From contig JANNBB010000034.1 in NCBI GenBank assembly GCA_031385005.1, positions 1,026 to 65,025 on the forward strand: DNA of 64,000 bases, given 5' to 3'. The notes beneath the pieces were generated by a model. It saw only the letters and a program-made list of their open reading frames with translations, did not search any database and was not told the DNA's origin. Source of the stretch: Bacteroidota bacterium (GTDB lineage: Bacteria; Bacteroidota; Bacteroidia; AKYH767-A; 2013-40CM-41-45). The number at the start of each line of letters is the position of its first letter. Within the stretch, counting starts at the first letter, position 1. The position numbers and the translations under genes are program-made. Positions 3,001-51,910 of the stretch are shown one piece after another.

Positions 3001-6000
3001 ATTCAGTAACAGTCATTCAGCCGCAGGAGTTGGTAATTTCTGCTACGGGAAATCCGGCTACATGCGGTATATCAAATGGATCAATCAATACATCTATTAT
3101 TGGCGGGACTGCGCCCTACTCCTATGCTTGGAATCCGGGTGGACCCGGAAGCGCGAATTTATCCGGTTTACAGGCAGGGTTGTATTCAGTTATTGCGACT
3201 GACCAAAATGGATGTACGACGGAGATAACCACTTCTGTTTCCAACATTACCAATATGACTGTCACTTCAACCTCAATAGGTGTATCCTGTTTTGGTGGTA
3301 ACAATGGATCTGCTTCCGTTGTTGTAAACAGTGGAACGCAGCCTTATCAATATTTCTGGGCCAATAATAATTCAACCAATCCTTCTTTAAGCGGGTTGTA
3401 TTCCGGAACATATACAGTTATCGTTACAGATGGCAACCAATGCATACAAATTATTTCAATTGATGTGGTTGAGCCGCCTGCCTTGTCAGTTCTGGCATCG
3501 TCCGTATCAAATGTTTCCTGCAATGGCGGAAATGATGCAACAGCAACTGTTTTAGCATCGGGCGGAACGGCTCCCTATTCTTACCAATGGAACCCGGGAG
3601 GAAACAATCAACCGATAGCAAATTCGTTAACTGCAGGATTGCATTCCGTATCCGTAACTGATGCTCATGGCTGTACAAATGTTTTGCAACTTTCAATTAA
3701 TGAACCGCCGGTTATTTCGTATTCAACTGCAGTAACACCTACTGCATGTGGAACATCTAATGGATCAGCATCTATTTTTGTTTCCGGTGGTACTCCTCCA
3801 TTCAACTATGCATGGACACCAGGAGGAATGAATAGCCCTGCAATAAATAATATAACAGCCGGAATTTACACTGTTGTTGTTACCGACGCCAATAATTGCT
3901 CAAATACCACCACTATTTCCGTATCCAATATAGATGGACCAACCTTGAATGTTTCTTCATTGAACAATGTGAGTTGTTATAATGGAGCAAATGGAAGCGC
4001 ATCTGTGCAGGTAATCAATGGAACATCTCCTTTTACTTATCAATGGTTTCCTATTGGTGGGGCGTCTCCAAATGCAACAAATCTTACTGCAGGAAATTTT
4101 ATGGTTGAAGTCCGTGATGCAAATCAATGTATCACATCATTACCTATTTCAATTTCAGAACCGGCACCTATCGCCGATTCAATTATTTCATTACCTGCAT
4201 TATGCGCAGGACAATCAACCGGATCTGCTCTTGCTATTATTTATGGTGGAATATCGCCTTATACTTTTCAATGGTCAGCCGGAAATTATTCAGCCGGATT
4301 TGTTTCCGGACTCCCTGCGGGAACACATACCGTTACTATAACGGATGCAAATGGTTGTACGCATATGGCAAATGCTGTTATTACCGAACCGATGACATTG
4401 GAAGCTGTTACTTCAGCAATTAATGTAAGCTGTTATGGGTTGAACGATGCGAGTATAACAACAAATGTTACAGGTGGCACTGCTCCTTACTTGTATAACT
4501 GGTTACCAAATGGCGGTCATTTATCATTTGCCGAATATCTTTCAGAAGGAAATTACAGCGTTCAGATTACAGATGCCAACGGTTGTGATTTGAGCATATC
4601 CAATTATATTGAATCGCCTGCCAAACTTCTTGTTTCAGTTACTAGCAGTAATGTACATTGTTTTAATGGTAATGACGGGTTTGCAGAAGCAGTTGTTTCA
4701 GGTGGAGTTGCTCCATACTCATTTAATTGGGATAATTCTTATAATCATCCATCCATTTCAAATTTAACAGCCGGATCTTATATGGTAACAGTTACGGATA
4801 CGAATGGCTGTTCAACTTCAGAAGAAATATTCATTTCTCAGCCGGAGGAGTTACAAATCGTTCTCGAAAATCCATTGCCTATATGTATAGGACAGCAAGT
4901 AAATTTAAATCCATCCGTTTCGGGAGGAACAGAACCCTATTCCTTCAATTGGAGTAACGGTATTCATACTTCATCACAAATTATTTCACCTGATTCATCT
5001 ATGAATTTGTTTTTATTAGTATCAGACGCTAATGGCTGTGAAATTTCCTTCGATGAAATTACTATTTCTGTACGTGAGCCGGTTTTGGCAGTACCACCTG
5101 TTTCTGATACTATTTGCGAGGGCAGTTCTGTTATACTGTCTATGAATGCAATTGGTGGTAATGGCGGACCGTATTATTATTCCTGGGAAAATGGAAGTAC
5201 AGGGAATTCAATTACAGTTTCGCCGGTAAATTCAACTACCTATATGCTGACAGTTACAGATAATTGCACTCTCTTACCGGCAATAGTTGAAGTTCCTGTT
5301 GTAGTCATTCCTAAACCTGTCGTAAATTTTTTACCCAATCCAATAGTTGGCTGCGCACCTTTAGATGCACATTTTTTCGATCTTACTTCTGCTTGTCCTT
5401 CTTGTTCGTATTCGTGGGAATTTGGTGATGGTACAAATTCATCTGAAAAAAATGGAAGTCATCTATTCGAAACACCCGGCGAATATTCTGTAACCCACAC
5501 TGTAACAAATAGCTTTGGCTGTTATGCACAATTACAAATTCCTGCTGCAGTAAGAGTCTATCCCGTTCCTGAATCTGCATTTTCTACATCTTCTGAAATT
5601 GTTTCGGAGGAAAATCCATTGATATCTTTTATGGACCACAGCGCATTAACTAGTCAATGGTCATGGGATTTCGGAGATAACCGTGGAAATTCTATTTTAC
5701 AAAATCCTGTTTACTCCTATAATGACACGGGAACCTTTGTAGTTCGCTTAATCAGTATCAATGAATATGGTTGCAAGGATACTTCCTATAATAAAATACA
5801 AGTGCGACCGGAGTATGGCATTTTCATTCCAAATGCATTTACTCCTAACAATGATGGCGTGAATGATACGTTTATGCCATTGATGTCAGGCACATCTTCC
5901 TTTGAAATGCTTATTTATGATCGTTGGGGAATCAAAATTTTCGAGACAACTGAATTACAAAAACCCTGGAATGGTCGTTTTCAAAACAGTGAAAATATTT

Positions 6001-33881: not shown

Positions 33882-34286
33882 TCAATGAGGTAAACGATCT
33901 TTAAAAAATGAATAGGTATATGTTCCTGCAAGCGCGCTTAACAACAAGATAATTGAAATAAAATACCCGCTTCCCACTTGAATATAAATCGGACCCGGAC
34001 AAGCTCCTGTCAATCCCCAGCCGATTCCGAATAAAGCGGAACCGTAAATGGTACCTTGATTAAATAATTTTCTTCTAGGCTGAATTGTTTCGCCTTGAAA
34101 AGATTTAAATTTGAACTTTTTAATAAGCCACATTCCCCCTATTGCCGTCGGAATAGCTGTCAGAAAAATCCCGAATATCTGTATTCCCTGAAAATGAAAC
34201 ATCTCCTGCATTCTATACCAGGAAACTGCTTCACCTTTTATTAATGCTAAACCGAAAATAAAACCAATTATGAAATATTGAATCAT
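33882..34286 (-). CDS. YeeE/YedE family sulfur-compound transporter, second subunit
   Basis: FGIGWGLTGACPGP motif, SWYRMQEMF, four TM segments; likely start ATG 34286. Confidence 0.85.
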   Translation of the reverse strand: MIQYFIIGFIFGLALIKGEAVSWYRMQEMFHFQGIQIFGIFLTAIPTAIGGMWLIKKFKFKSFQGETIQPRRKLFNQGTIYGSALFGIGWGLTGACPGPIYIQVGSGYFISIILLLSALAGTYTYSFFKDRLPH

Positions 34287-34308
34287 TTCTTTCTCTTTAA
34301 ATAAACAA

Positions 34309-34890
34309 TCAATTACCAATCTTTAAAATAACCGGTAATAAAAATATGCTAGTCAGAATTCCGAAAGCGAAAAAAGTAATTGTGGCAACAAGTGAAGGCC
34401 ACTGAAATGTTGACAAACCTAAAATTCCATGACCGGAAGTACAACCTCCCGCCCACCGTGTTCCAAAACCAACGAGAAAACCTCCTCCGACAATCATAAT
34501 TAATCCTCGCAAATTCAGCAATTCATTAAAATTAAAAATTGAAGAAGGCATTACACCTGACTGATTAGCTATACCATATCCAACAAGGAGTTCTCTTGTT
34601 TCAACTGATAAATGAATGGGTTCATTACTGTTCAATAAAATTCCTCCGACAAATCCACTGGTAATTAAACCTAAAGCAAATACCAGATTCCAACGTTGCT
34701 GTTGCCAATCGTAGTTGAGGAAATTAATTTTGCCCGGTAAAATAGCTGCACAAATTTCTCTTAAGGTTGAAGAAATACCTAAAGATTTATTTCCGACAAT
34801 GAGCAATAACGGAACGCATAAACCAATGATTGGTCCAGAGACATACCAAGGCCAGGGTTGTTTCAGCATCAGGAAAAAAAAATCGAGCAT
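34309..34890 (-). CDS. YeeE/YedE family sulfur-compound transporter, first subunit
   Basis: WPWYVSGP, LGISS, LVGFGTRWAGGCTSGHG motif. Confidence 0.88.
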   Translation of the reverse strand: MLDFFFLMLKQPWPWYVSGPIIGLCVPLLLIVGNKSLGISSTLREICAAILPGKINFLNYDWQQQRWNLVFALGLITSGFVGGILLNSNEPIHLSVETRELLVGYGIANQSGVMPSSIFNFNELLNLRGLIMIVGGGFLVGFGTRWAGGCTSGHGILGLSTFQWPSLVATITFFAFGILTSIFLLPVILKIGN

Positions 34891-34927
34891 ATTCGGTCTT
34901 TACAATTTTATACGTTGAGTATTACTC

Positions 34928-36091
34928 TTAATATTTTTTAAGTTCGGGCTGAACTTCATCAATCCATGCAATAATACCACCTTTTAAATTATAAACATTT
35001 ACAAAACCGAACTGCTCCTGCAATTGTTTTATAACTTTGGCACTTCTTCCTCCCATCTTGCAATGAACGACGACTTTTTTGCTCCGGTCAATTTTTTCTA
35101 TTGAATTTTCAATAGTTGCAAGCGGAATAAGTTCTCCTCCGATATTCGCAATTTCATATTCATGTGGTTCCCGGACATCGATTAATTGAAAATCTTCGCC
35201 ACTTTTTTGCCAGTTAAATAGTTCTTTGACAGAAATTTCATTTACAAGAGATTCATCGGCCAATTTCAAACCACAGAAAGCTTCATAATCAATCAATGAA
35301 TGAATAGTCGAATTTATTCCGTTTAAAGGATTCGCCGGGTTTCTGCTGATATTGAATGTTCGTGTTTCGAATGATAAAGCGTCGAAAGTAAAAAACCTTC
35401 CTGAAAGAGGTTCACCAATTCCCGTAATAACCTTAATCACTTCCAACCCTTGCAAACTTCCGATGATACCGGGAAGAACGCCTAATACTCCTGCTTCTGC
35501 GCAGTTAGGAACTAATCCGGGTGGTGGTGGTGTTGGATAGAGGTCACGATAGTTGGGGCCTAATTCCCCTTGAGCATTTCTGTAATTAAACACAGCAACC
35601 TGTCCTTCAAATTGAAATATAGATGCATACACATTCGTTTTACCGGTTAAAACAGCTGCATCGTTGACGAGATACCTTGTAGGAAAATTATCTGTACCAT
35701 CTGCGACTACATCGTATTCAGAAAGTATTTCCAAAATATTGGAAGAAGTTATTCGGGTATTATAGGTTTTTATTTGAATGTATGGATTCAGTGATTCCAA
35801 TCTTCTTTTTGCAGCGTCTACTTTGGGTTTTCCTACATCTTCAATACCGAATAATACCTGGCGATGTAGGTTACTGTCATCCACTACATCAAAATCGACA
35901 ATACCCAAGGTTCCAACTCCGGCTGCTGCAAGGTAAAGTAAAAGTGGACTCCCAAGTCCACCGGAACCAACCACTAAAACTTTTGATGCCTTCAATTTAC
36001 TTTGAGCTTCAATTCCGAAATCGGGAATGATGATATGCCGATTGTATCGTGCTAATTCATCTTTAGAAAATTGAATGATTTGATTGGTCAT
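34928..36091 (-). CDS. moeB: MoeZ-type sulfur-carrier adenylyltransferase (ThiF/MoeB E1 fused to rhodanese)
   Basis: RYNRH, VGSGGLGSP, SNLHRQ, DGTDNFPTRY, NYRDLYP...NCAEAG; rhodanese LIDVRE...HCKMGGRS...GGIIAW. Confidence 0.92.
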   Translation of the reverse strand: MTNQIIQFSKDELARYNRHIIIPDFGIEAQSKLKASKVLVVGSGGLGSPLLLYLAAAGVGTLGIVDFDVVDDSNLHRQVLFGIEDVGKPKVDAAKRRLESLNPYIQIKTYNTRITSSNILEILSEYDVVADGTDNFPTRYLVNDAAVLTGKTNVYASIFQFEGQVAVFNYRNAQGELGPNYRDLYPTPPPPGLVPNCAEAGVLGVLPGIIGSLQGLEVIKVITGIGEPLSGRFFTFDALSFETRTFNISRNPANPLNGINSTIHSLIDYEAFCGLKLADESLVNEISVKELFNWQKSGEDFQLIDVREPHEYEIANIGGELIPLATIENSIEKIDRSKKVVVHCKMGGRSAKVIKQLQEQFGFVNVYNLKGGIIAWIDEVQPELKKY

Positions 36092-36105
36092 AATACATAA
36101 TTTAT

Positions 36106-36387
36106 TTATATTGATGTTCCCCCTGCTATTGCAGGAATAATGCTGATAATGGCATCTTTTTTTAAGACTGTTTGCTCTTGTTGAAGATTGCGAATATCGT
36201 CGTTTCCTACGAAAATATTTATAAAACTTCTTAAGTTCCCCTTTTCATCAAGCAAATGCTTTTTCAGGTCCGGGAAATTAAGCGTTAACTCATTCACTAA
36301 ATCTTGTATAGTATTAGCGTTTAATTCCAATCTGCTATTGTTATTAGTGAATTTTCTGAGGGGAGTCGGAATAATGATTGTTGGCAT
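36106..36387 (-). CDS. Ubiquitin-like sulfur carrier (CysO/MoaD/ThiS family) with C-terminal extension
   Basis: IPTPLRKFT, FINIFVGNDDIR, IIPAIAGG followed by TSI-stop. Confidence 0.9.
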   Translation of the reverse strand: MPTIIIPTPLRKFTNNNSRLELNANTIQDLVNELTLNFPDLKKHLLDEKGNLRSFINIFVGNDDIRNLQQEQTVLKKDAIISIIPAIAGGTSI

Positions 36388-36406
36388 TTTATATCTTTTA
36401 TTAAAA

Positions 36407-36826
36407 TTAATTATTAAAGTTTATTATTTCCTCTTCAAACTGTTCAAAATCGTTAAGACGCCACGATCGAATTAAATCAACTTTAGCATTCAAAATAGAA
36501 ACGATAACGTATGAGAAATAGGGTTGCGCCGCCAAACGATCTGTTTCGGAAGGGACAGGTGGATGATCGGGATGAGAATGATAAATTCCCAGAAGTGACA
36601 AATGTCTTTCATCCGCAAATTTTTCTGCATATAAATAATCGGCAGGACTTATGAGGAATCGTCTACGTTGATCCTCCATACTTATATTAACAACAGGGAG
36701 AACAACGTTTACAAATCTTTTTTCGATTTCTTCCATACCTAAAAGAAAACCGCAACATTCGTTGGGATAACTCTTTAAAGCATCTTCACTAATTCGGGAA
36801 ATAGCGTGTGCAGTCAAGTTAATCAT
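36407..36826 (-). CDS. JAMM/MPN+ (M67) metallopeptidase, Mec-like
   Basis: YPNECCG and YHSHPDHPPVPSETD (E...HxH-x7-S-x2-D); start overlaps the stop of the cysteine synthase gene. Confidence 0.92.
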   Translation of the reverse strand: MINLTAHAISRISEDALKSYPNECCGFLLGMEEIEKRFVNVVLPVVNISMEDQRRRFLISPADYLYAEKFADERHLSLLGIYHSHPDHPPVPSETDRLAAQPYFSYVIVSILNAKVDLIRSWRLNDFEQFEEEIINFNN

Positions 36827-37761
36827 AGTCCGAGTTTTTTAATTACTTCACCATACTTAGCAGCATTGTCGGGAAGAATGGTTACAACAATATAGTTTGA
36901 ATTATTTTTTGCTAATTTGAATGCCCCGGTAAGGTTTGCCGCAGATGAAGGGCTAAGTAAAATTCCATCTTGCCTATATATTTGAATCAATGTTTCATAA
37001 GCTTCCTCAGTGGTTACTTCAGCATTTTCATCTGCCAATGAAGCATCGTAAATACCTGGAACAACGGCAGTATCGAGATGTTTCCAACCCTCCATACCAT
37101 GAAGAGCGGAATCCGGGTGAAGGGCAACTAAATGAATGTTTGCATTTTCATCTTTTAACCTTCTGCCGGTACCGATGAATGTCCCTGTAGTTCCCAATCC
37201 GGCCACAAAATGAGTGATCTCAGGAACACATTTTAAAATCTCCAAAGCTGTTGAATCATAATGTGCCTTCCAATTGTTAGGATTTTTATATTGATCCGCA
37301 TAGAAATATTTATCAGAATACTTGAAAGACAATTCCAATGCAACCGATTGTGCGCCATCGGTACCTTCTAGAGGAGAGGTAAAAATTATTTCAACACCCA
37401 GGTTTTCCAGTATTCTTTTTCTTTCTATGGAGGCATTTTCAGGCAAACACAGGGTGACTTGAATTCCGAGTTGATGACAAATTTCCGCATATGCAATTCC
37501 GGTATTACCGCTTGTTGCATCTAACAATCGAATTTCTTTGTTTAATTTTCCTTCGCGGATAGCACCTAATATAATTCCATAGGCAGCACGTGCTTTGACG
37601 CTTCCGGAAAGCTGCATCCACTCCAATTTGGCTAACACTGCTACATGCTTATCGCTCCAATGCTGAAACAATTGCATAGATGTATTCCCAATTTGGTTTC
37701 CCAAATTAATGGCATCCCGGAGTAACACAGAATCGATGTTATTTGATTTTAGCTCTATCAT
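36823..37761 (-). CDS. PLP-dependent cysteine synthase family protein (CysM-like)
   Basis: IGNT, KLE...SGSVKAR PLP lysine, ATSGNTG, QYKNPNN, GLGTTGT, SSAAN, ILPD...KY. Confidence 0.9.
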   Translation of the reverse strand: MIELKSNNIDSVLLRDAINLGNQIGNTSMQLFQHWSDKHVAVLAKLEWMQLSGSVKARAAYGIILGAIREGKLNKEIRLLDATSGNTGIAYAEICHQLGIQVTLCLPENASIERKRILENLGVEIIFTSPLEGTDGAQSVALELSFKYSDKYFYADQYKNPNNWKAHYDSTALEILKCVPEITHFVAGLGTTGTFIGTGRRLKDENANIHLVALHPDSALHGMEGWKHLDTAVVPGIYDASLADENAEVTTEEAYETLIQIYRQDGILLSPSSAANLTGAFKLAKNNSNYIVVTILPDNAAKYGEVIKKLGL

Positions 37762-37768
37762 TTTCTAC

Positions 37769-37800
37769 AAAAAAAAAGCTCCACATTTCGGTGGAGCTTT
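37769..37800 (-). terminator. Intrinsic terminator in the 5' leader of the sulfur-relay operon (attenuator)
   Basis: Minus strand AAAGCTCCAC-CGAAAT-GTGGAGC-TTTTTTTTT, ending 7 nt before the cysteine synthase ATG. No large gene ends here on either strand. Confidence 0.85.
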
Positions 37801-37824: not shown

Positions 37825-37914
37825 TTATGCACAATAATCATTGTCCACCACAATGATAAATCCTGTGGTTTGACAACATGATGTACTTAGAATATTTTCT
37901 CTTATTAGTTTCAT
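37825..37914 (-). CDS. Putative Cys-containing leader peptide MKLIRENILSTSCCQTTGFIIVVDNDYCA (29 aa)
   Basis: ATG 37914 to TAA 37825 with AT-rich upstream context. Tandem TGT TGT at codons 13-14 and TGT at codon 28. Stop lies 24 nt before the terminator. Confidence 0.65.
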   Translation of the reverse strand: MKLIRENILSTSCCQTTGFIIVVDNDYCA

Positions 37915-38095
37915 TTCATTTAATTATATGCAATGTAAGTAAAATCTAATCCGTTGTCAAGTTAATATTTAAAATAATTTCAATTGGGGGATTAATTAAA
38001 CATTACTTATTCATCAAAATCTTTAAAATAATTGAAATTGATCCCCAAGAGTGGTAGATGTTTTCTAACTTTACCAAGATCGTGATTCAACTTGT

Positions 38096-39130
38096 ATGAA
38101 GAATTCTTACGTTTACCGTAATCCCAAGTATTTTCTTAGTTTGTTACCCGGAATCGCTGTTATTTACGGTAATATTATAGGTGGTTGGTGGGGGCTTTCA
38201 AACCTGGTCTTTTCACTTGGCATTTTGGCATTAGTAGAATGGTTTACACCCGTAGATAAGAGTAATGAAAACACTTCTGAATCACTCATTCCTGATCTGG
38301 TATTAATCCTGCACGTATGCATTCAAATACTTGCACTATCCACTTTTTTCTATTCGATACATCAAAATAAATTTTCTTTCTGGCAATTACACTGGGCAGC
38401 GGTGAGCGTAGGGATTCACAGTGGCTCCTCCTCTATCGTCATTGCACATGAAATGATACACAGGAAAAATAAAATCTGGCGATGGTTAGGGAAATTTTTA
38501 CTATTCACCGCAGGAAATGTATATTTCTTTGTTGAACATCTTCGTGTGCATCACAAATGGGTAGGAACTGAGAAGGATCCGGCAAGCGCATATTACAATG
38601 AATCACTTTATCGTTTTTATTTACGAACTACCTACGGACAATTTACAAATGCCTTATCTATGGAATCAGAACGATTAAAATCTGAAAATCGTTTTCCTTA
38701 TAGCATGAGAAATTATGTAGTTCAAAATTTATTATTATTAACAGTCTTAATTATTGCTCTGTACTATTTCATAGGCACTGCTGCAGTCATTGCATTTATA
38801 TTTCAGGCAATCATCGCTAATTTCCTTTTAGAATATACGAACTACATTGAACATTACGGACTACGCAGAAATGAAAATGAGCGGGTGAATGAAAAACATT
38901 CCTGGCAGAGTGACAAAGTAATATCGAGATTTTTTCTCATTGACCTCAGTCGCCATAGCGATCATCACTACTATGCATCCAAACCTTTTCATCAACTAAA
39001 TTCACTTCCCGGAAGTCCCGTTCTGCCTACCGGATACGTTACCAGTATTTATCTGGCATTGATTCCACCACTCTGGTATAAAGTGGTGAACAAAAGAATT
39101 AAAGAATTCAATTCAAGTCAATCGCTTTAA
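38096..39130 (+). CDS. alkB: Alkane 1-monooxygenase (AlkB) family membrane di-iron enzyme
   Basis: His boxes HEMIH, EHLRVHH, NYIEHYGL (HYG motif), LSRHSDHH. Confidence 0.85.
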   Translation: MKNSYVYRNPKYFLSLLPGIAVIYGNIIGGWWGLSNLVFSLGILALVEWFTPVDKSNENTSESLIPDLVLILHVCIQILALSTFFYSIHQNKFSFWQLHWAAVSVGIHSGSSSIVIAHEMIHRKNKIWRWLGKFLLFTAGNVYFFVEHLRVHHKWVGTEKDPASAYYNESLYRFYLRTTYGQFTNALSMESERLKSENRFPYSMRNYVVQNLLLLTVLIIALYYFIGTAAVIAFIFQAIIANFLLEYTNYIEHYGLRRNENERVNEKHSWQSDKVISRFFLIDLSRHSDHHYYASKPFHQLNSLPGSPVLPTGYVTSIYLALIPPLWYKVVNKRIKEFNSSQSL

Positions 39131-46546: not shown

Positions 46547-47527
46547 ATGCTTTACGACAATTTCGGACGAGTACACGATTACTTGCGAATTTCGCTTACT
46601 GACGTTTGTAATTTCAGGTGTCAGTATTGTATGCCGGATGAAAACATACAGTTTCTACCCTCATCGAGACTCATGCAGGCCGGGGAAATTGACACATTGG
46701 CAAAAGCGTTTGTAAAACTGGGAGTGAAAAAAATCCGACTTACAGGTGGTGAACCCCTGGCCAGAAAAGATGTCCCGGAAATCATCCTTGAACTCTCCAA
46801 ATACCCAATAGAACTTACGCTAACAACCAATGGTTTTTACATTAAAGAATTACTACCTACTCTTCAAAAAGCAGGTATAACTTCTATCAATGTGAGTCTG
46901 GATACGCTGAATAAAGAAAAATTCTTCACCATCACCAAACGTCATGCCTTCGAAATTGTATGGAGCAATATTCAACTATTACTAGACGCCGGACTTCATG
47001 TTAAAATAAACACTGTTCTGATGCATGGAATAAACGACGATGAAATTTTAGATTTTATCGCCTGGACAAAAAATCAACCTATACATATTCGATTTATTGA
47101 ATTCATGCCTTTTCAAGGTAATAAATGGGATGAAAAAAAAGTATTTAGCTATAACGAAATTCTAGACGTTGTATCTTCGAAATACAGTTTCCTTCAACTG
47201 AAAAATACCCTTCACGAAACAGCTAAAAAATTCAAACCCTATAATCATCAGGGTACGTTTGCGATAATTAGCACGATGAGTGCTCCTTTTTGTAATAATT
47301 GCAACAGAATGCGGCTCACTGCTGACGGCAAAATGAAGAATTGCCTGTTCTCTAAAGGTGAAGCTGATATTTTGGGAGCTCTTCGCAATGGTGAAGACAT
47401 TGAACCGCTTATCAAACAATGTATACTAAATAAAGCCGAAGCGCTTGGCGGACAGTTTAAGGGCGATTTTAGACAAATTGATGCAACCAAAATTTCTAAC
47501 CGCAGCATGATAAACATCGGTGGTTGA
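46547..47527 (+). CDS. moaA: GTP 3',8-cyclase (radical SAM)
   Basis: YLRISLTDVCNFRCQYC, RLTGGEP, RFIEFMP, CNNCNRMRLTADG...C, C-terminal IGG. Confidence 0.96.
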   Translation: MLYDNFGRVHDYLRISLTDVCNFRCQYCMPDENIQFLPSSRLMQAGEIDTLAKAFVKLGVKKIRLTGGEPLARKDVPEIILELSKYPIELTLTTNGFYIKELLPTLQKAGITSINVSLDTLNKEKFFTITKRHAFEIVWSNIQLLLDAGLHVKINTVLMHGINDDEILDFIAWTKNQPIHIRFIEFMPFQGNKWDEKKVFSYNEILDVVSSKYSFLQLKNTLHETAKKFKPYNHQGTFAIISTMSAPFCNNCNRMRLTADGKMKNCLFSKGEADILGALRNGEDIEPLIKQCILNKAEALGGQFKGDFRQIDATKISNRSMINIGG

Positions 47528-47540
47528 TTTTTTTTAACCT

Positions 47541-47566
47541 TCGTTATTCCTTTTATGGCATATCGA
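47541..47566. promoter_or_regulatory. ModE-box candidate upstream of moeA
   Basis: tCGTTAT-N12-ATATCGa, one mismatch from the CGTTAT-N12-ATAACG core of the known ModE operator; a modE-like gene is in the cluster. Confidence 0.5.
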
Positions 47567-47573
47567 TAAATTA

Positions 47574-48752
47574 ATGAATATGATTACAGTAACCGAAGCA
47601 AGAAAAATAATAAACGAAAACTCACTTCAATCCAAAAAAGAAACCATCTCATTGAAGAAAGCAAACGGTTATGTTTTAGCTGAACCGACTCTTTCTGTAA
47701 TTGACACTCCCCCATTCCAACAATCAGCCATGGATGGCTACGCTATCTCTTTCGATGATTGGGATAAAAAAAACGAATTAAAAGTAATCGGTGAAATTCC
47801 GGCCGGCATTTCCTTCAACCAAAGATTAAAACCATTTGAAGCTGTGCGGATTTTTACCGGAGCCATGTTACCCCAGGGTACCGATACGGTTGTCATGCAG
47901 GAAAAAGTAGAAAAAGTAGAAAATACAATCACAATTAAAGATATCAATCTGCTACGTGGGCACAACGTTCGCTTAAAGGGATCGCAGTCGCGAAAAGATG
48001 ATGTCGCACTTGCAGCCGGACAATTATTAACTCCTTCCGGAATATCCTTTCTGGCGGGAGTTGGTGTAAATCAGGTAAGCGTGTATTCAAAACCAACCGT
48101 ATGCATCGTTGTAACAGGGAAAGAATTAACTCAACCCGGAGACATGCTTTCTGAAGGAAAAATTTATGAATCAAATTCTTTCGGATTAACAGCGGGTTTA
48201 AAACAATTAAACATTAATAATGTTTCCACTCAGACTATAGATGATAATGAAAATGAAATAATACATGCAGTGATGAGCCAATTGCAGAATGATTTCATCA
48301 TTCTAACCGGTGGAGTTTCTGTCGGGGACTATGATTTCGTTCATTCTGCTCTTGAAAAGTGTGGCGTGATAAAACTATTTCACCGTGTGAAGCAAAAACC
48401 GGGAAAACCAATTTACTTTGGCAAGATTAATAATACATTGGTTTTCGGACTTCCCGGAAATCCCGCCGCAGTAATGTGTTGCTTCTACGAATATGTAGTT
48501 CCTGCTATCTGCAACTTTACGCATAATGCAAAACCCCGGAAGATAAAATTTCAACTTGAAAATGATTTCACTAAAAAAACCGGACTCACCTTTTTTCTTA
48601 AAGGCAAATCAGGAGAAAATGGCGTAAGGATACTAAATAGTCAGGAAAGCTATCTGATGAATTCATTTGCACTAGCCGATTGTTTAATTGAATTAGAGGA
48701 AGAAAAAGAAATATATAAAAAAGGAGATTGGGTGAAAGTATTGATGCTTTAA
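47574..48752 (+). CDS. moeA: Molybdopterin molybdenumtransferase
   Basis: SAMDGYA, RIFTGA, TGGVSVGDYD, KPGKP, GLPGNP. Confidence 0.95.
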   Translation: MNMITVTEARKIINENSLQSKKETISLKKANGYVLAEPTLSVIDTPPFQQSAMDGYAISFDDWDKKNELKVIGEIPAGISFNQRLKPFEAVRIFTGAMLPQGTDTVVMQEKVEKVENTITIKDINLLRGHNVRLKGSQSRKDDVALAAGQLLTPSGISFLAGVGVNQVSVYSKPTVCIVVTGKELTQPGDMLSEGKIYESNSFGLTAGLKQLNINNVSTQTIDDNENEIIHAVMSQLQNDFIILTGGVSVGDYDFVHSALEKCGVIKLFHRVKQKPGKPIYFGKINNTLVFGLPGNPAAVMCCFYEYVVPAICNFTHNAKPRKIKFQLENDFTKKTGLTFFLKGKSGENGVRILNSQESYLMNSFALADCLIELEEEKEIYKKGDWVKVLML

Positions 48753-48843
48753 TATCAAATGTTAGCGTTTATACTTAATAATTCACCCACTCCATGCAAT
48801 AGTTTAAACGAGGATGTTTCATCAAAAATTAAACATTAAAATT

Positions 48844-49173
48844 ATGTCTTTAGAATTTAAAGCACATTTCTGGATTGAAAATCGTAAAGGCCAGGTTATT
48901 GGTCCGGGTAAGAAAAGATTATTGGAAGAAATCGAAAAAACTGGCTCAATTAAGTCAGCAGCGAAGGCCATGAAAATGTCATACCGACATGCCTGGGAAA
49001 TGACCAATACCATGAATAGAAATAATGCTAAGCCAGTAGTTGAAAAAGTAACGGGAGGAATAAAAGGAGGCGGAACACAACTAACTAAAGAAGGTAAGAA
49101 ACTGATTAAGGTATATGAAAAAGCATTTAAGCAATTTGAAGTATTTAAAATCCGCATAAACAAATCTCTCTAA
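48844..49173 (+). CDS. modE: ModE-like winged-helix regulator (N-terminal domain only)
   Basis: IGPGK...LL...TGSIKSAAKAMKMSYRHAW, GGIKGGGTQLT; no TOBE/mop domains. Confidence 0.8.
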   Translation: MSLEFKAHFWIENRKGQVIGPGKKRLLEEIEKTGSIKSAAKAMKMSYRHAWEMTNTMNRNNAKPVVEKVTGGIKGGGTQLTKEGKKLIKVYEKAFKQFEVFKIRINKSL

Positions 49174-49179
49174 ATACGA

Positions 49180-49911
49180 ATGACCATACAATATCTTTTT
49201 TATTTTTTAGTGTTTCTTGTTGCCTTTCTCTACTCTACCGTCGGGCATGGAGGAGCCAGTGGCTATCTGGCACTTATGGCTCTTTTTTCCTATTCTACGG
49301 AGTCGATGCGTTCGACTGCTTTGCTATTGAATATTGTTGTTTCCCTCCTTGCATTCATTCAATTTTATCGTGCAGGATATTTTCAATGGAAATTATTTAT
49401 TCCCTTTGCAATCACTTCTATCCCTGCGGCATTTGTGGGAGGATTAATAATCATGGATGCATCGTTATATAAACACATCTTAGCAATCTTGCTTATTTTT
49501 CCGGTTATTAAACTAATAGGAATTATTCCGCAAAGAGAAAATATAGAAAAACCATTAAATATTTATGCGGCCTTGACAATTGGTCTGTTCATCGGTTTTA
49601 TTTCCGGTATAATTGGAATTGGGGGAGGAATTATTCTTAGTCCTGTTATATTACTCATGCATTGGGCCAACATGAAGCAAACGGCTGCCGTTTCATCTTT
49701 ATTTATTTTGGTCAATTCTCTGGCGGGATTAGCCGGCATTTTTATCAACCAATTCCATTTTGAAAGTGAAATGCAATTGCTCCTTTTATTAGCATTAGCA
49801 GGAGGATTGTCGGGCGCATACCTGGGTGCTATGAAATTCAATATTCCATTTCTACGAAAATTGTTGGCTGTGGTTTTACTAATCGCTTCCATAAAATTAA
49901 TCAGCACCTGA
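49180..49911 (+). CDS. TauE/SafE (TSUP) family anion transporter
   Basis: YSTVGHGGASGY, SGIIGIGGGIILSP; about eight TM segments. Confidence 0.87.
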   Translation: MTIQYLFYFLVFLVAFLYSTVGHGGASGYLALMALFSYSTESMRSTALLLNIVVSLLAFIQFYRAGYFQWKLFIPFAITSIPAAFVGGLIIMDASLYKHILAILLIFPVIKLIGIIPQRENIEKPLNIYAALTIGLFIGFISGIIGIGGGIILSPVILLMHWANMKQTAAVSSLFILVNSLAGLAGIFINQFHFESEMQLLLLLALAGGLSGAYLGAMKFNIPFLRKLLAVVLLIASIKLIST

Positions 49912-49912
49912 A

Positions 49913-50506
49913 ATGACTACAGCTTCAAAAGAAAAAATTAACGGTTATATAATTGCAGGCGGCAAAAGCTCCAGGATGGGAAGTGATAAGGGATTGATAC
50001 TACTTCATAATAAACCGATAATTTTACACGTGATTGAAAACTTAAAACAATCAGTAAATGAATTAGTAATAATCTCCAACATTTCCGAATATCAAGAATT
50101 TGGCTTTCCGGTTATTCCTGATTTGATAAAAGAAAAAGGTCCTGCAGGTGGAATACATTCCGCACTCAGCCAATCAACTGTAAATCGTAATTTTATTGTA
50201 AGCTGCGATATGCCATTTATCAATCCACATGCGATTAATTTCATGATAGAAAATTCAGTGCATGATCAAATTACACTGCCTATTCGAAAGAATAAAATTG
50301 AACCCCTATTTGGTGTCTATACAACAGATTGTTTGCCAAAATGGGGAGAACTCATTCAACAAGGCAATATAAAACTACAGCAAATGATTCGAAACTTTAA
50401 ATTGAACATCATTGAAGTCGAAAAAATAATCGAATTCGATAAAAATACATTCCTGAATATCAATACTCCTTCGGAATTGATTTTGGCACAGGGAATCAAA
50501 TTATAA
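49913..50506 (+). CDS. mobA: Molybdenum cofactor guanylyltransferase
   Basis: IAGGKSSRMGSDK, GPAGGI, SCDMPF, NINTP. Confidence 0.9.
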   Translation: MTTASKEKINGYIIAGGKSSRMGSDKGLILLHNKPIILHVIENLKQSVNELVIISNISEYQEFGFPVIPDLIKEKGPAGGIHSALSQSTVNRNFIVSCDMPFINPHAINFMIENSVHDQITLPIRKNKIEPLFGVYTTDCLPKWGELIQQGNIKLQQMIRNFKLNIIEVEKIIEFDKNTFLNINTPSELILAQGIKL

Positions 50507-50540
50507 ATAAATAAATCACGAATCAAACGTCGATATTTCC

Positions 50541-50984
50541 ATGGATGACAAGAAAAGAAAAAAAATATTTGTGAAAGGGGCGATTAACCCGACCTTCGTA
50601 GGAGAATCAATTGCCAAACACAGCAGTAAAAAAGACATTGGCGCTCACAGTATTTTTTTGGGACAAGTAAGAAATGATGTAATTGAAGGCCATACTGTAA
50701 TCGCAATTGATTATTCTGCCTATGAAGAAATGGCTGCGGAAAAATTGCATGAAATAAGAGAGGAAACGTTTTCTAAATACTCTTTAAGTTGTATGCATAT
50801 TTATCATAGCATCGGAAAAGTAGCTGCAGGAGAAATCAGTTTATTCGTATTTACTTCCTCTAAACACAGAAAAGATGCTATTGATGCATGCTCTTATCTG
50901 GTCAATCGAATTAAAGAAGATGTTCCTATATGGGGAAAGGAAATTTTCGAGGACGAAAGCTTCCAATGGAAAACAAACGATTAA
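50541..50984 (+). CDS. moaE: Molybdopterin synthase catalytic subunit
   Basis: GAHSIFLGQVR, YSAYEEMA, HSIG, SKHRK, PIWGKE. Confidence 0.92.
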   Translation: MDDKKRKKIFVKGAINPTFVGESIAKHSSKKDIGAHSIFLGQVRNDVIEGHTVIAIDYSAYEEMAAEKLHEIREETFSKYSLSCMHIYHSIGKVAAGEISLFVFTSSKHRKDAIDACSYLVNRIKEDVPIWGKEIFEDESFQWKTND

Positions 50985-50998
50985 AATATATTTTAAAA

Positions 50999-51910
50999 AT
51001 GGTAGATATCACCAATAAAATTAAAACACATCGCACAGCAATAGCACAAGCTATTGTAAGGGTAAGTAAACTTGCAACAATTGAAGCAATAAAAAACAAA
51101 ACAGTACCGAAAGGCGATGTTTTGGAAGCCAGTCGAGTGGCAGGATTATTCGGCATCAAACGAACCAGTGACATGATCCCGGATTGTCACCCCCTACCGA
51201 TAGAATATGCTTCAATTAATCATCGTATGGAAGGATTGGAAATTATTATTGAAACGGAAGTCCACACGATTTACCGAACGGGTGTAGAAGTAGAAGCCAT
51301 GCATGGGGCTTCTGTAACTGCGCTTACGATCTACGATATGCTTAAACCCATTGACAAAGAAATCGAAATTTCAACAATAAAATTACTATCAAAAAAAGGC
51401 GGTAAATCACAGTACAATGAAACATTAAATCGTACGCTGAAAACTGCTGTTCTGGTTTGTTCTGATAGCATTTCTGCGGGTATAAAAGAAGATTTTGCCG
51501 GCAAAAGCATTATCGGCAAACTTGAAAAAATGAATCTTTTTGTGAATGAATATATGGTAATTACAGATGAAGTTAATGCCATTCGGGAGAAAGTACTTTC
51601 GCTTTATGATTTAAGATTCGATTTAATTATTTTAACCGGTGGAACAGGACTATCTGAAAGGGATGTTACACCGGAGGCAATTCGACCATTATTGGACCGT
51701 GAAATTCCAGGCATTGGAGAAACCGCAAGAACCTACGGCCAGGAGCACATGCCCTATTCCATGCTATCAAGAAGTCTTGGTGGATTAAAGGGTAACACAC
51801 TCATACTTGCTTTGCCTGGTTCTACTCGGGGAGCAATGGAAAGCATGGATGCTCTATTTCCCTATTTGCTGCATATTTTTAAGGTGATGGAGAATGAACC
51901 ACATGTTTGA
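50999..51910 (+). CDS. moaCB: Bifunctional MoaC-MoaB/MogA fusion
   Basis: MVDITNK (ATG 50999), KGDV, IPDCHPL, TGVEVEA, IYDMLK, KKGGKS; second domain TGGTGLSERDVTPEA, LPGS. Confidence 0.92.
   Translation: MVDITNKIKTHRTAIAQAIVRVSKLATIEAIKNKTVPKGDVLEASRVAGLFGIKRTSDMIPDCHPLPIEYASINHRMEGLEIIIETEVHTIYRTGVEVEAMHGASVTALTIYDMLKPIDKEIEISTIKLLSKKGGKSQYNETLNRTLKTAVLVCSDSISAGIKEDFAGKSIIGKLEKMNLFVNEYMVITDEVNAIREKVLSLYDLRFDLIILTGGTGLSERDVTPEAIRPLLDREIPGIGETARTYGQEHMPYSMLSRSLGGLKGNTLILALPGSTRGAMESMDALFPYLLHIFKVMENEPHV

Follow-up and report, generated by a model that had tools for sequence, protein, structure and literature searches.

Mycobacterium tuberculosis reportedly makes cysteine through CysO, CysM, Mec and MoeZ(R), a pathway said to have been described by Burns et al. 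in 2005. Its CysO ends in a free GG and its CysM uses O-phosphoserine; E. coli CysM uses thiosulfate. In the HcyS/HcyD system of Wolinella, the carrier has residues past GG, JAMM trimming has been proposed or shown, and the product is homocysteine. With regard to regulation, trpL, hisL and pheL are known leader-peptide attenuators. On the basis of the available portions of the following sources, several related systems have been reported. Iyer, Burroughs and Aravind (2006) catalogued an association of ThiS/MoaD, E1-rhodanese, JAB and cysteine synthase genes (Table 1, row 4c), which is listed for proteobacteria, Acidobacteria, Actinobacteria, Bacteroidetes/Chlorobi (Srub) and Chloroflexus (PMC1779556). 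In thioquinolobactin synthesis (QbsE/QbsD), the carrier has extra residues past GG, and trimming by a JAMM peptidase has been proposed or shown (PMC5925218). Mycobacterial MoeZR binds both CysO and MoaD and acts as a thiosulfate sulfurtransferase, with thiosulfate judged non-physiological by the authors (Km 1.67 mM; PMC3227635). Among sulfur transporters, E. coli YeeE needs YeeD (PMC11073785), a heterodimer of the half-size YeeE proteins PmpA/PmpB has already been proposed in print (PMC11582611; PMC7449682), and a YedE-like protein has been linked to selenium transport in a methanogen (PMC11582611). Polycysteine leaderless short ORFs are present in mycobacteria (bioRxiv 10.1101/834739), and Cys leader peptides have been predicted in Actinobacteria (PMC1262725).

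Here, we analyzed a window of 64,000 nucleotides (the whole stretch of DNA under study) from a Bacteroidota genome with a completeness of 99.85%. The source is an uncultured sediment bacterium; near-identical DNA was detected in (freshwater) sediment metagenome runs of three studies, which contained half or more of the sampled words, and one of these runs is possibly the source. The ORF listing of the window contains six co-oriented minus-strand ORFs at 33882-37761 and, together with the protein families, confirmed the preliminary description of six tightly packed genes with one 4-nt overlap. The overlap lies between the cysM and JAMM genes, and the remaining gaps are 19, 14, 37 and 22 nt. The first gene (36823..37761) encodes a CysM-like PLP-dependent cysteine synthase of 312 aa (Pfam PALP, 175 bits; NCBIfam cysM TIGR01138, 261.6 bits, below the cut-off of 394.2). 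It is followed by a Mec-like JAMM/MPN metallopeptidase of 139 aa (36407..36826; Prok-JAB, 91.8 bits), in which E23 and H83-S-H85-x7-S93-x2-D96 are invariant in a 12-row alignment (A4), the JAMM motif being defined as in the available part of PMC5925218. The third product is a ThiS/MoaD-fold sulfur carrier of 93 aa (36106..36387; ThiS, 39 bits), which scores under the cut-offs of the SAMP1 and MoaD models (NCBIfam) and has the C-terminus AIAGG-TSI. The fourth is a MoeZ-type E1 of 387 aa (34928..36091), composed of a ThiF adenylyltransferase (266.5 bits) and a C-terminal rhodanese domain (51.3 bits); its score against MoeZ NF005902 is 460.7 bits, below the cut-off of 647 (NCBIfam), and its rhodanese loop reads HCKMGGRS, with both the rhodanese and the E1 cysteines preserved. 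The last two genes encode half-size YeeE/YedE proteins. The PmpA-like YeeE_A (34309..34890, 193 aa) matches Sulf_transp positions 255-306 of 310, the C-terminal part, and in a profile alignment it covers residues 274-328 of S. thermophila YeeE, where C150 falls opposite C293. The PmpB-like YeeE_B (33882..34286, 134 aa) matches DUF6691 and Sulf_transp positions 10-102, the N-terminal part, and aligns to residues 6-113, with C96 opposite C91; its ORF spans 33882-34319, and the start is most likely the ATG at 34286, as in relatives. The cysteines matching C91 and C293 are invariant, as is a second cysteine of YeeE_A, C47. It should be noted that all curated equivalog models (cysM, MoeZ, SAMP1/MoaD, desampylase and TsuA) scored below their cut-offs.

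The preliminary description had proposed a survey of gene neighbourhoods, and its expectation held for the four-gene order, while the YeeE pair was mostly missing (see below). The order CysM-JAMM-carrier-MoeZ was kept at 64 of 69 loci found with CysM, the five exceptions being cut contigs or one rearranged locus, and at 67 of 80 loci found with the JAMM profile, which included other phyla and archaea; the two samples have some contigs in common. Since the order recurs at 64 of the 69 CysM-found loci, the arrangement is not due to chance. The cysM/JAMM start-stop overlap also recurs with this order across phyla. Because the carrier ends in AIAGG-TSI, it would be made as a precursor. In the first sample, 41 carriers had short tails, 18 were fused in frame to E1 and 3 had free GG ends; the second contained 37 short tails, 5 tails of 13-31 residues, 23 fusions and 3 free GG ends. 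Thus, most carriers are tailed or fused to E1 and would need the peptidase before activation, which parallels QbsE/QbsD as presented in the available text of PMC5925218.

Upstream of cysM, also on the minus strand, a leader reading frame of 29 codons plus stop, MKLIRENILSTSCCQTTGFIIVVDNDYCA, was read from the sequence and found by script at 37825..37914. It has tandem Cys codons at 37873-37878 and one further Cys codon near its end. A promoter-like site, TTGACA-17-TACATT (37932..37960), was called 5' of the frame by consensus scan only. In the alignment of related leaders, a TAnnTTTG-like box occupies the matching place, which would correspond to the Bacteroidota -7 motif. In relatives, a run of 3-8 Cys codons takes the position of the tandem codons; the window's own leader has just two adjacent ones, and it shares with its three nearest relatives a CC plus 1-2 more Cys. 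A frame with at least three consecutive Cys codons no more than 350 nt upstream of cysM was found at 48 of 65 loci, compared with 11 of 1203 control windows, and such a frame was also present 5' of cysM at 40 of 68 loci of the second sample. Such leaders occur in Bacteroidota and Balneolota. An intrinsic terminator, AAAGCTCCAC / loop CGAAAT / GTGGAGCTTT (37769..37800), has a 9-T run ending 7 nt before the cysM ATG; a 9-bp consensus helix was shared by 23 leaders, and a hairpin with T-run lay 25-46 nt past the leader stop in 50 of 52. The window leader folds at -42.5 kcal/mol (z -4.16). The proposed antiterminator strand, GGTGGA (37844..37849, within the leader frame), is complementary to TCCACC (37790-37795) in the 5' arm of the terminator. 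All 23 aligned leaders share GGTGG, which forms part of a hairpin loop; 4 base pairs of this hairpin show compensatory changes. For the window alone, the antiterminator duplex was no better than shuffles (-6.1 versus a shuffle mean of -5.4 kcal/mol); of 50 leaders examined, 17 had a duplex that outperformed 95% of the shuffles. Three different terminator stems were observed, each with a matching 3'-arm mimic inside the leader frame. Against Rfam, the leader showed weak likeness to Phe and Thr leaders only (E 0.029 and 0.5). The Cys-codon leader 5' of cysM therefore ties the operon to cysteine supply and is the best new support for its role in cysteine synthesis.

Genome-wide searches agreed with the proposed pathway. 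No cysE was found over the cut-off, nor were cysK, cysH or sulfite reductase (NIR_SIR) found in the genome, and cysC-cysD-cysN are present on a contig other than that of the window. In a sample of 200 genomes, cysE was found in none of 11 cluster-bearing genomes versus 39 of 189 others. Because the genome has no cysE, O-phosphoserine is the leading candidate for the activated serine; its supply is only putative, since searches of the genome for canonical serC (TIGR01364; not found in five relatives either) and serB (TIGR00338) were negative. The only serC-like gene, located next to a DUF1015 gene, encodes a class-V aminotransferase that resembles serC_3 weakly (68 bits). A gene resembling CBS and another resembling cystathionine gamma-lyase/synthase are also present in the genome, and therefore cysteine could also come from methionine. 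The window further contains a molybdenum cofactor (Moco) operon (46547..51910, plus strand; moaA, moeA, modE-like, TauE/SafE-like, mobA, moaE and moaC/B) that lacks moaD and moeB; a canonical MoaD ending GG-stop is encoded on another contig. Because MoeZ is the sole ThiF-family match, and hence the sole E1, in the genome, it must also serve Moco synthesis, and the Moco operon, without its own moaD and moeB, depends on the MoeZ of the cluster. Thus, given the shared E1 and the serC and serB searches, the relay cannot be called self-contained, contrary to the earlier suggestion.

Taken together, the operon probably directs CysO-type, carrier-protein-dependent cysteine synthesis that is expressed when cysteine is short, with sulfur import by YeeE. 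A protein-thiocarboxylate pathway had been suggested earlier, and the four core families, their intact motifs, the gene order and the Cys-codon leader support it. When charged tRNA-Cys is scarce, ribosomes would stall at the leader Cys codons, the GGTGGA strand would pair with the terminator arm, and RNA polymerase would read into cysM and through yeeE_B. The JAMM peptidase would cut off the TSI tail to expose the carrier Gly-Gly end, which MoeZ would adenylate and the rhodanese-cysteine persulfide would convert to a thiocarboxylate. The CysM-like enzyme would turn the activated serine, putatively O-phosphoserine, into aminoacrylate, to which the carrier thiocarboxylate would add; after an acyl shift, the JAMM peptidase would free cysteine and recycle the carrier. 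In the lineage of the window, the two half-size YeeE proteins may form one membrane channel that imports thiosulfate or other sulfane-sulfur species to load the rhodanese domain, and MoeZ would additionally serve the separate MoaD for Moco synthesis. The cargo may be thiosulfate, and the pathway may need no free sulfide.

An unlikely alternative, though one with some evidence in its favor, is that the core makes cysteine and the YeeE pair is a passenger, or helps the cell to expel or detoxify sulfite, thiosulfate or sulfane sulfur, with MoeZ sulfur coming from free sulfide or a cysteine desulfurase. The pair is missing from most related loci: it adjoins the cluster at only 7 of 69 CysM-found loci, forming two clades, and at 2 of 80 JAMM-profile loci, and of the 47 loci whose flanks are long enough, 4 have the pair and 43 do not. 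In the class sample, 86 of 201 Bacteroidia genomes encode a YeeE_A homolog, in most cases with no cluster, and among 11 cluster-bearing genomes the pair is adjacent in none and elsewhere in 8. Co-conservation of the pair with the cluster, as initially assumed, was thus not observed. The pair is complete in every one of 18 further Bacteroidia genomes, where its neighbours (counted from 39 of 148 ORFs submitted) resemble persulfide/thiosulfate handling, namely MBL+rhodanese fusions (9), rhodanese proteins (2), TsdA/SoxA-like cytochromes (3) and TauE (2); a leader with at least three Cys codons was found at 0 of these 18 loci. In addition, the genome has three strong class-V cysteine desulfurase-like genes, and genomes G007 and G074 carry the core amid genes for sulfite reductase and siroheme (with CysH too in G007), which shows sulfide feeding the core in other lineages. 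However, cysteine-derived sulfur would give no net cysteine, the genome has neither sulfite reductase nor CysH, and its only YeeE pair lies 37 nt behind moeZ with no terminator-like site called between. Adjacency also arose in two separate clades (quick tree, SH-aLRT 98 and 99). In the second clade, the cysM leader sits between the pair and cysM, so this pair is not under that leader; at L053, a separate Cys-codon leader with terminator precedes the pair. The YeeE-cluster link is therefore real but narrow, being confined to two small clades. Structure prediction lent weak support to pairing of the two halves, with a score of 0.58 versus 0.00 for the best of three controls, a mark reached by 116 of 157 solved complexes and 2 of 215 mismatches, scores at or below 0.60 comprising just 18 of the 157 plus both mismatches. 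The runs agreed in at least 99% of contacts with partner pLDDT of at least 73, and the result may reflect likeness only, full-length YeeE being solved.

Rather improbable is a carrier-independent synthase, in which YeeE imports thiosulfate, the CysM-like enzyme condenses thiosulfate or free sulfide with activated serine, and the carrier, JAMM peptidase and MoeZ serve other thiolations (Moco, tRNA). E. coli CysM (2bht, E 1.8e-47) is indeed the best solved relative, MoeZ has to serve Moco, and sediment habitats supply both sulfide and thiosulfate. On the other hand, M. tuberculosis CysM (3dwg/3dki) matches at E 4e-42, the solved CysM-CysO complex 3dwg being among the close matches, and the four-gene order and the cysM/JAMM overlap persist across phyla. 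A separate free-GG MoaD and its MoaE exist elsewhere, thiazole synthase ThiG was not found in the genome, and, as cysE was not found, there would be no O-acetylserine for an E. coli-type reaction. Much less credible is a ubiquitin-like conjugation or anti-phage system (SAMP/UbaA/JAMM-like or Cap2/Cap3-like): the carrier, E1 and JAMM protein match SAMP1, SAMP-activating E1 and desampylase models best or nearly so, and a 6A-MBL Cap2/3 model weakly, all below cut-offs, but Pfam and NCBIfam searches found no E2 domain, cyclase or effector gene among the six genes, and the cluster is consistently linked to a cysteine synthase and a Cys-codon attenuator. Although the direction and cargo of YeeE transport are not readable from sequence, and selenium may formally be handled given SelD in the genome (409.9 bits) and the methanogen YedE-like protein tied to selenium transport in the available text of PMC11582611, this is the least plausible reading, as selD lies away from the pair, the operon begins with a cysteine-codon leader followed by a cysteine synthase gene, and at other loci the genes next to the pair encode thiosulfate and persulfide enzymes.

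Compared with the M. tuberculosis pathway, the operon has the same four protein families, and in both the E1 is fused to rhodanese and common to the cysteine carrier and MoaD; the GG-TSI carrier tail (E1 fusion in relatives), the terminator-type Cys leader and the split YeeE pair are additions. The products of QbsE/QbsD and HcyS/HcyD are a siderophore and homocysteine, respectively; in the operon of the window, the carrier-trimming peptidase would in addition set cysteine free. Its four core genes stand side by side in one order, whereas a table in PMC3227635 places M. tuberculosis moeZR at a distant locus number. The core is exactly type 4c of Iyer et al.; it has already been catalogued, including for Bacteroidetes/Chlorobi, and is not new to Bacteroidota-like bacteria, while the available part of that article mentions no leader, YeeE genes or carrier tails for this type (PMC1779556). 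As in PmpA/PmpB (available text of PMC11582611), one protein resembles the C-terminal and the other the N-terminal half of YeeE, with YeeE_A having 193 aa rather than about 130 and the additional C47. As in full-length YeeE/TsuA, cysteines are retained at the C293 and C91 positions. The pair differs in belonging to a cysteine operon, and a genome-wide search for a TusA/YeeD-family gene (YeeD/TsuB) gave no match. Mycobacterial polycysteine ORFs act on translation (bioRxiv 10.1101/834739, available portion) and the 2005 Actinobacteria predictions are, in the accessible text, without terminators (PMC1262725), whereas the leader described here has both a terminator and a proposed antiterminator. 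Our data extend a known operon type by adding a predicted cysteine-sensing leader and a putative two-piece sulfur transporter.

Six minus-strand ORFs occupy 33882-37761 in the ORF listing of the window, and their Pfam and NCBIfam assignments bear out the preliminary description of six tightly packed genes. These are a cysM-like gene (36823-37761; PALP/cysteine synthase in Pfam and NCBIfam), a JAMM peptidase gene (36407-36826; Prok-JAB) that overlaps cysM by 4 nt, a carrier gene (36106-36387; ThiS), a moeZ-like gene (34928-36091; ThiF and Rhodanese), and yeeE_A (34309-34890) and yeeE_B (33882-34286, starting at the ATG used by relatives), each matching half of Sulf_transp; the intergenic gaps are 19, 14, 37 and 22 nt. 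A cysteine synthase, a JAMM peptidase, a ThiS/MoaD-fold carrier and an E1 with rhodanese are all co-located, as a CysO-type pathway requires. Because the curated NCBIfam equivalog models for cysM, MoeZ (460.7 versus a cut-off of 647), SAMP1/MoaD, desampylase and TsuA all scored under their cut-offs, the cluster proteins should be considered relatives of the named proteins, not certified members. The JAMM motif E-x(n)-H-S/T-H-x7-S-x2-D, as quoted in a passage of PMC5925218, is complete, with E23, H83, H85, S93 and D96 invariant in a 12-row alignment (A4). The MoeZ-like protein comprises ThiF (residues 16-252) and C-terminal Rhodanese (residues 297-378) domains, and its rhodanese active-site cysteine loop (HCKMGGRS) is present. 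In a PDB search with the CysM-like protein the top alignments shown were to E. coli or Thermotoga enzymes, and the Lys of its conserved MEGWKH stretch stands opposite R210 of E. coli CysM. A defence-system reading of the cluster was rejected on gene content. A thiamin role was also rejected, ThiG not being found in the source genome. The window also contains three very long ORFs, of about 2000, 1821 and 2081 aa, at other places. Among the sequence data sets matched to this stretch, none of RNA was listed.

The same four-gene core, cysM to moeZ, is spread widely among uncultured Bacteroidota and reaches other groups. It was also seen in cultured bacteria, namely Paraflavitalea, Pseudoflavitalea, Puia sp. 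P3 and Reichenbachiella agariperforans DSM 26134. A CysM-based search with one genome per species gave 69 loci (the first sample), and tblastn showed the order CysM-JAMM-carrier-MoeZ in 64 of them, the five exceptions being cut contigs (L048, L050, L054 and L086) and a rearranged Planctomycetota locus (L083). A second search with a JAMM profile, whose loci are partly on the same contigs as those of the first, kept the order in 67 of 80 loci and took in Acidobacteriota, Armatimonadota, Gemmatimonadota, Ignavibacteria, Kryptoniota and archaea. Among 200 evenly sampled Bacteroidia genomes, a strong JAMM homolog was present in 11 and a weak one in 1, which indicates a patchy distribution; this sample includes one genome flagged as unpublished (G166), which enters the tallies only and on which alone no claim is made. 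Clustering of flank ORFs of the 69 loci, examined for neighbours other than YeeE, revealed none that is widely shared, and the housekeeping genes found there track clade synteny. A 1-Cys peroxiredoxin gene adjoins the core in 7 of the 69 loci, from several clades (L030, L031, L049, L053, L057, L063 and L074), reminiscent of the oxidative-stress role proposed for the mycobacterial pathway. Two loci on contigs labelled Comamonadaceae (L062 and L063) bear an operon of Bacteroidota type, and a quick CysM tree (SH-aLRT support only) places them with Flavobacteriales; these labels are probably binning errors.

That the core serves cysteine supply is backed by regulatory evidence from the region upstream of cysM, which does not depend on homology. 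Alignment of the upstream regions of relatives exposed a TGT/TGC-rich leader frame at 37914-37825 on the minus strand (MKLIRENILSTSCCQTTGFIIVVDNDYCA, followed by a stop). On the same strand a terminator (37800-37769; stem AAAGCTCCAC/GTGGAGCTTT) is followed by nine T ending 7 nt before the cysM ATG, and GGTGGA in the leader frame (37849-37844) is complementary to TCCACC of the terminator 5' arm. The Cys run of the window is only two codons long and its antiterminator 6 bp; leader frames of relatives have up to eight Cys codons in a row. A run of three or more Cys codons, in a frame 8-50 codons long and no more than 350 nt before cysM, was present in 48 of 65 evaluable loci, as against 11 of 1203 random 350-nt windows from the same loci, and in 40 of 68 loci of the second sample; those without it were mostly non-Bacteroidota. 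A hairpin with a T-run begins 25-46 nt past the leader stop in 50 of 52 leaders. GGTGG is invariant across 23 aligned leaders and sits in the loop of a hairpin that shows compensatory changes, and other clades have different terminator stems (beginning GCCCTTCGG and GCCTTTCC) with a matching 3'-arm mimic within their leader frames. Of 50 leaders, 17 had a predicted antiterminator duplex that outscored 95% of shuffles; the window's own was not one of them.

Judged from sequence, a short frame rich in Cys codons, the regulating amino acid, precedes predicted antiterminator and terminator helices that would exclude each other, all ahead of cysM; in layout this is a ribosome-mediated attenuator. 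A ribosome stalled at the Cys codons would leave the antiterminator strand free, and unhindered translation to the leader stop would cover this strand and let the terminator form. Rfam has no such leader family; no Rfam family of any kind scored at gathering level in the window, and relaxed thresholds gave weak Phe and Thr leader likeness only. A search of the source genome for other units with Cys leaders yielded 11 candidates with two adjacent Cys codons and a hairpin, none with three or more, and only the cysM leader is convincing. The gene divergent from the leader region (38096-39130, plus strand) belongs to the fatty-acid desaturase family. The protein-thiocarboxylate cysteine pathway suggested by the preliminary description is well supported, and the leader adds an independent line of support.

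The C-termini of the carriers point to a further role of the JAMM protein. In the window the carrier ends in AIAGG-TSI, so that Gly-Gly is present with TSI after it. Among the 69 loci of the first sample, a tail of 1-12 residues follows Gly-Gly in 41, one of 13-31 residues in none, 18 have the carrier joined in frame to the E1, and Gly-Gly is free in 3; the corresponding numbers among the 80 loci of the second sample are 37, 5, 23 and 3, and the remaining loci of each gave no clean reading. Carrier-E1-rhodanese fusions with a linker after Gly-Gly were observed at L030-L036, L041, L043, L051, L073, L075, L077, L078, L080-L082, L085 and L088, and at 23 of the second-sample loci (L116-L195). Such masking of Gly-Gly by tails or fusions implies that the JAMM peptidase would be needed before the carrier can be activated, and the in-frame fusions imply polyprotein-like processing by the same enzyme. 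We infer that the JAMM protein cleaves the carrier, a precursor-processing role akin to ubiquitin maturation in view of the near-universal masking. Mec releases cysteine, and by analogy the JAMM peptidase presumably also acts after synthesis to do so. A passage in PMC5925218 proposes that QbsD trims QbsE likewise.

We also checked the source assembly (73 contigs, 99.85% complete) for cysE, cysK, cysDN and cysIJ. It was found that cysE (best match 37 bits), cysK, CysH and NIR_SIR sulfite reductase could not be detected in this genome, and CysC-CysD-CysN is present. In the class sample, none of the 11 cluster-bearing genomes had a cysE match at E <= 1e-25, compared with 39 of 189 others, as would be expected of a synthase with a substrate other than O-acetylserine. 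M. tuberculosis CysM uses O-phosphoserine, and this compound is a candidate substrate of the CysM-like enzyme here. Canonical serC was not found in the source genome or five relatives, nor canonical serB in the source genome; a class-V aminotransferase gene with weak serC_3 likeness, followed by a DUF1015 gene, is located at 30457-32784 of contig C70. The only other cysK/M-like gene encodes a 461-aa PALP protein (contig C33, 86521-87432) that scores 470 bits as cystathionine beta-synthase and 457.5 bits as cysteate synthase CapA, nearly level and both below cut-off. Together with one cystathionine gamma-lyase/synthase-like gene it makes a methionine-to-cysteine route possible; if it were instead a cysteate synthase, it could consume sulfite. 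The genome also encodes SelD (selenide, water dikinase; 409.9 bits; contig C72, 64105-65025), indicating that the organism has some selenium metabolism.

The MoeZ-like protein is the only ThiF-family E1 in the source genome. A Moco operon 9 kb from the cluster (46547-51910, plus strand) contains moaA, moeA, a modE-like gene, a TauE-like gene, mobA, moaE and moaC/B, with neither moaD nor moeB among its genes, and a canonical MoaD with a GG-stop end is encoded on another contig. Thus, MoeZ must serve two carriers, a capacity that PMC3227635 shows for mycobacterial MoeZR. With this shared E1, and with a supply of activated serine not evident as canonical serC and serB were not found, the self-containment claimed in the preliminary description was an overstatement. 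The TauE/SafE-like membrane gene embedded in the Moco operon lies at 49180-49911. If thiosulfate feeds the rhodanese, sulfite would be a by-product, and a sulfite exporter beside Moco genes would be suggestive.

YeeE_A (PmpA-like, 193 aa) corresponds to the C-terminal half and YeeE_B (PmpB-like, 134 aa) to the N-terminal half of full-length YeeE. C96 of YeeE_B and C150 of YeeE_A do not vary among 21 sequences; their counterparts in the alignment to S. thermophila YeeE are C91 and C293, respectively, and YeeE_A has an extra invariant cysteine (C47). YeeE/TsuA, which has YeeD/TsuB as its partner, consists of one chain of ~330-350 aa and contains a third cysteine (C22); the window has two chains with no Cys opposite C22, and no match to the TusA/YeeD family was found in the source genome. 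The TsuA model scored 27.7 bits against a cut-off of 400. Therefore, the pair resembles the PmpA/PmpB split form, not TsuA itself, and it matches the description and heterodimer proposal for PmpA/PmpB in PMC11582611. In structure prediction the two chains reached a fold score of 0.58, compared with 0.00 for the best of three controls, with runs agreeing on at least 99% of contacts and partner pLDDT of at least 73; 116 of 157 solved complexes and 2 of 215 mismatches came up to this mark, but only 18 of those 157 complexes, and both of the mismatches, did so at 0.60 or under. The predicted fold lends weak support to pairing, and likeness to solved YeeE may lie behind this pass.

The pair is linked to the core in few loci. 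It lies downstream of moeZ in the window, L020 and L021 (L022 is cut), and upstream of cysM in L040 (partial), L046, L053, L054 and L055. These arrangements form separate clades in the quick CysM tree (SH-aLRT 98 and 99), which indicates two gains of YeeE adjacency. In the upstream arrangement the cysM leader is located between the pair and cysM. L053, from a Saprospiraceae MAG, has a second complete Cys attenuator before yeeE_A (5440-5580; frame MNQFQAGCCCCFFD and a stop, a CCGAAGG mimic and a terminator), and none was found at that position in L046. Of the 47 core-bearing loci with 1500 nt or more on each side, 43 lack the pair, and within 8 kb in the second sample it was found in only 2 of 80 loci, one being the L046 contig again. 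Co-conservation of the pair with the core is thus not supported, and the transporter coupling put forward in the preliminary description is plausible for the lineage of the window but not general.

Elsewhere in the class, a YeeE_A homolog is present in 86 of the 201 Bacteroidia genomes sampled, including 8 of the 11 cluster-bearing ones, never adjacent to the cluster. In 18 such Bacteroidia genomes the two halves were always together. Of their 148 flank ORFs, 39 were run against Pfam, and these included nine fusions of MBL with rhodanese, two rhodanese proteins, three cytochromes of the TsdA/SoxA-like kind and two TauE proteins. The pair is therefore a mobile module associated with rhodanese and thiosulfate chemistry. 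The two MBL+rhodanese fusions of the source genome are located elsewhere, with no YeeE pair beside them, and tblastn detected no second pair in this genome; in the lineage of the window the pair sits behind the rhodanese end of MoeZ.

In two genomes the core has a different context: it is surrounded by genes for sulfite reductase, a tetrapyrrole methylase and siroheme synthase (L089, G007:C2; L090, G074:C42), with CysH and homoserine dehydrogenase after the core in G007. Compared with the YeeE pair here, this indicates that the unit takes sulfur from different upstream modules by lineage. This makes it more likely that the YeeE pair here is a supply module. Thiosulfate is a candidate import substrate, the context being the rhodanese, TsdA-like and TauE genes next to the pair in other members of the class. 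It is possible, if rather doubtful, that in a genome without YeeD/TusA or a sulfate-to-sulfide route the split channel hands sulfane sulfur derived from thiosulfate or polysulfide directly to the MoeZ rhodanese, and that transporter, rhodanese, E1, carrier and synthase form one cysteine-starvation-induced line making cysteine without free sulfide. Were this hand-over true, rhodanese domains would stand in for YeeD as the cytoplasmic YeeE-family partner in Bacteroidia. For sediment ecology, these observations suggest a way in which partly oxidised sulfur may be assimilated by bacteria that have no genes for sulfate reduction.

Almost all work on cysteine synthesis by a carrier protein has been done on M. 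tuberculosis, and the sulfur donor used there in vivo is not settled; the direct hand-over, if true, would name a physiological donor for the CysO-type pathway. The biochemistry of this carrier-dependent pathway in M. tuberculosis was reportedly worked out by Burns et al. in 2005. PMC3227635 gives an account of it, and the same gene combination is listed as neighbourhood type 4c, including Bacteroidetes/Chlorobi, in Table 1 of Iyer, Burroughs and Aravind 2006 (PMC1779556); the core operon type is thus already known. Our literature search found no paper on a leader-peptide attenuator for cysteine in Bacteroidetes/Bacteroidota, and no printed description was found of the terminator-type cysteine leader that appears to govern the core in Bacteroidota. 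By comparison, the polycysteine leaderless short ORFs of mycobacteria act translationally, according to bioRxiv 10.1101/834739, and the Cys leader peptides predicted in Actinobacteria are without terminators as presented in PMC1262725. The core itself is known; its leader, the masking or fusion of its carriers and a sulfur supply that varies by module set it apart as a variant.
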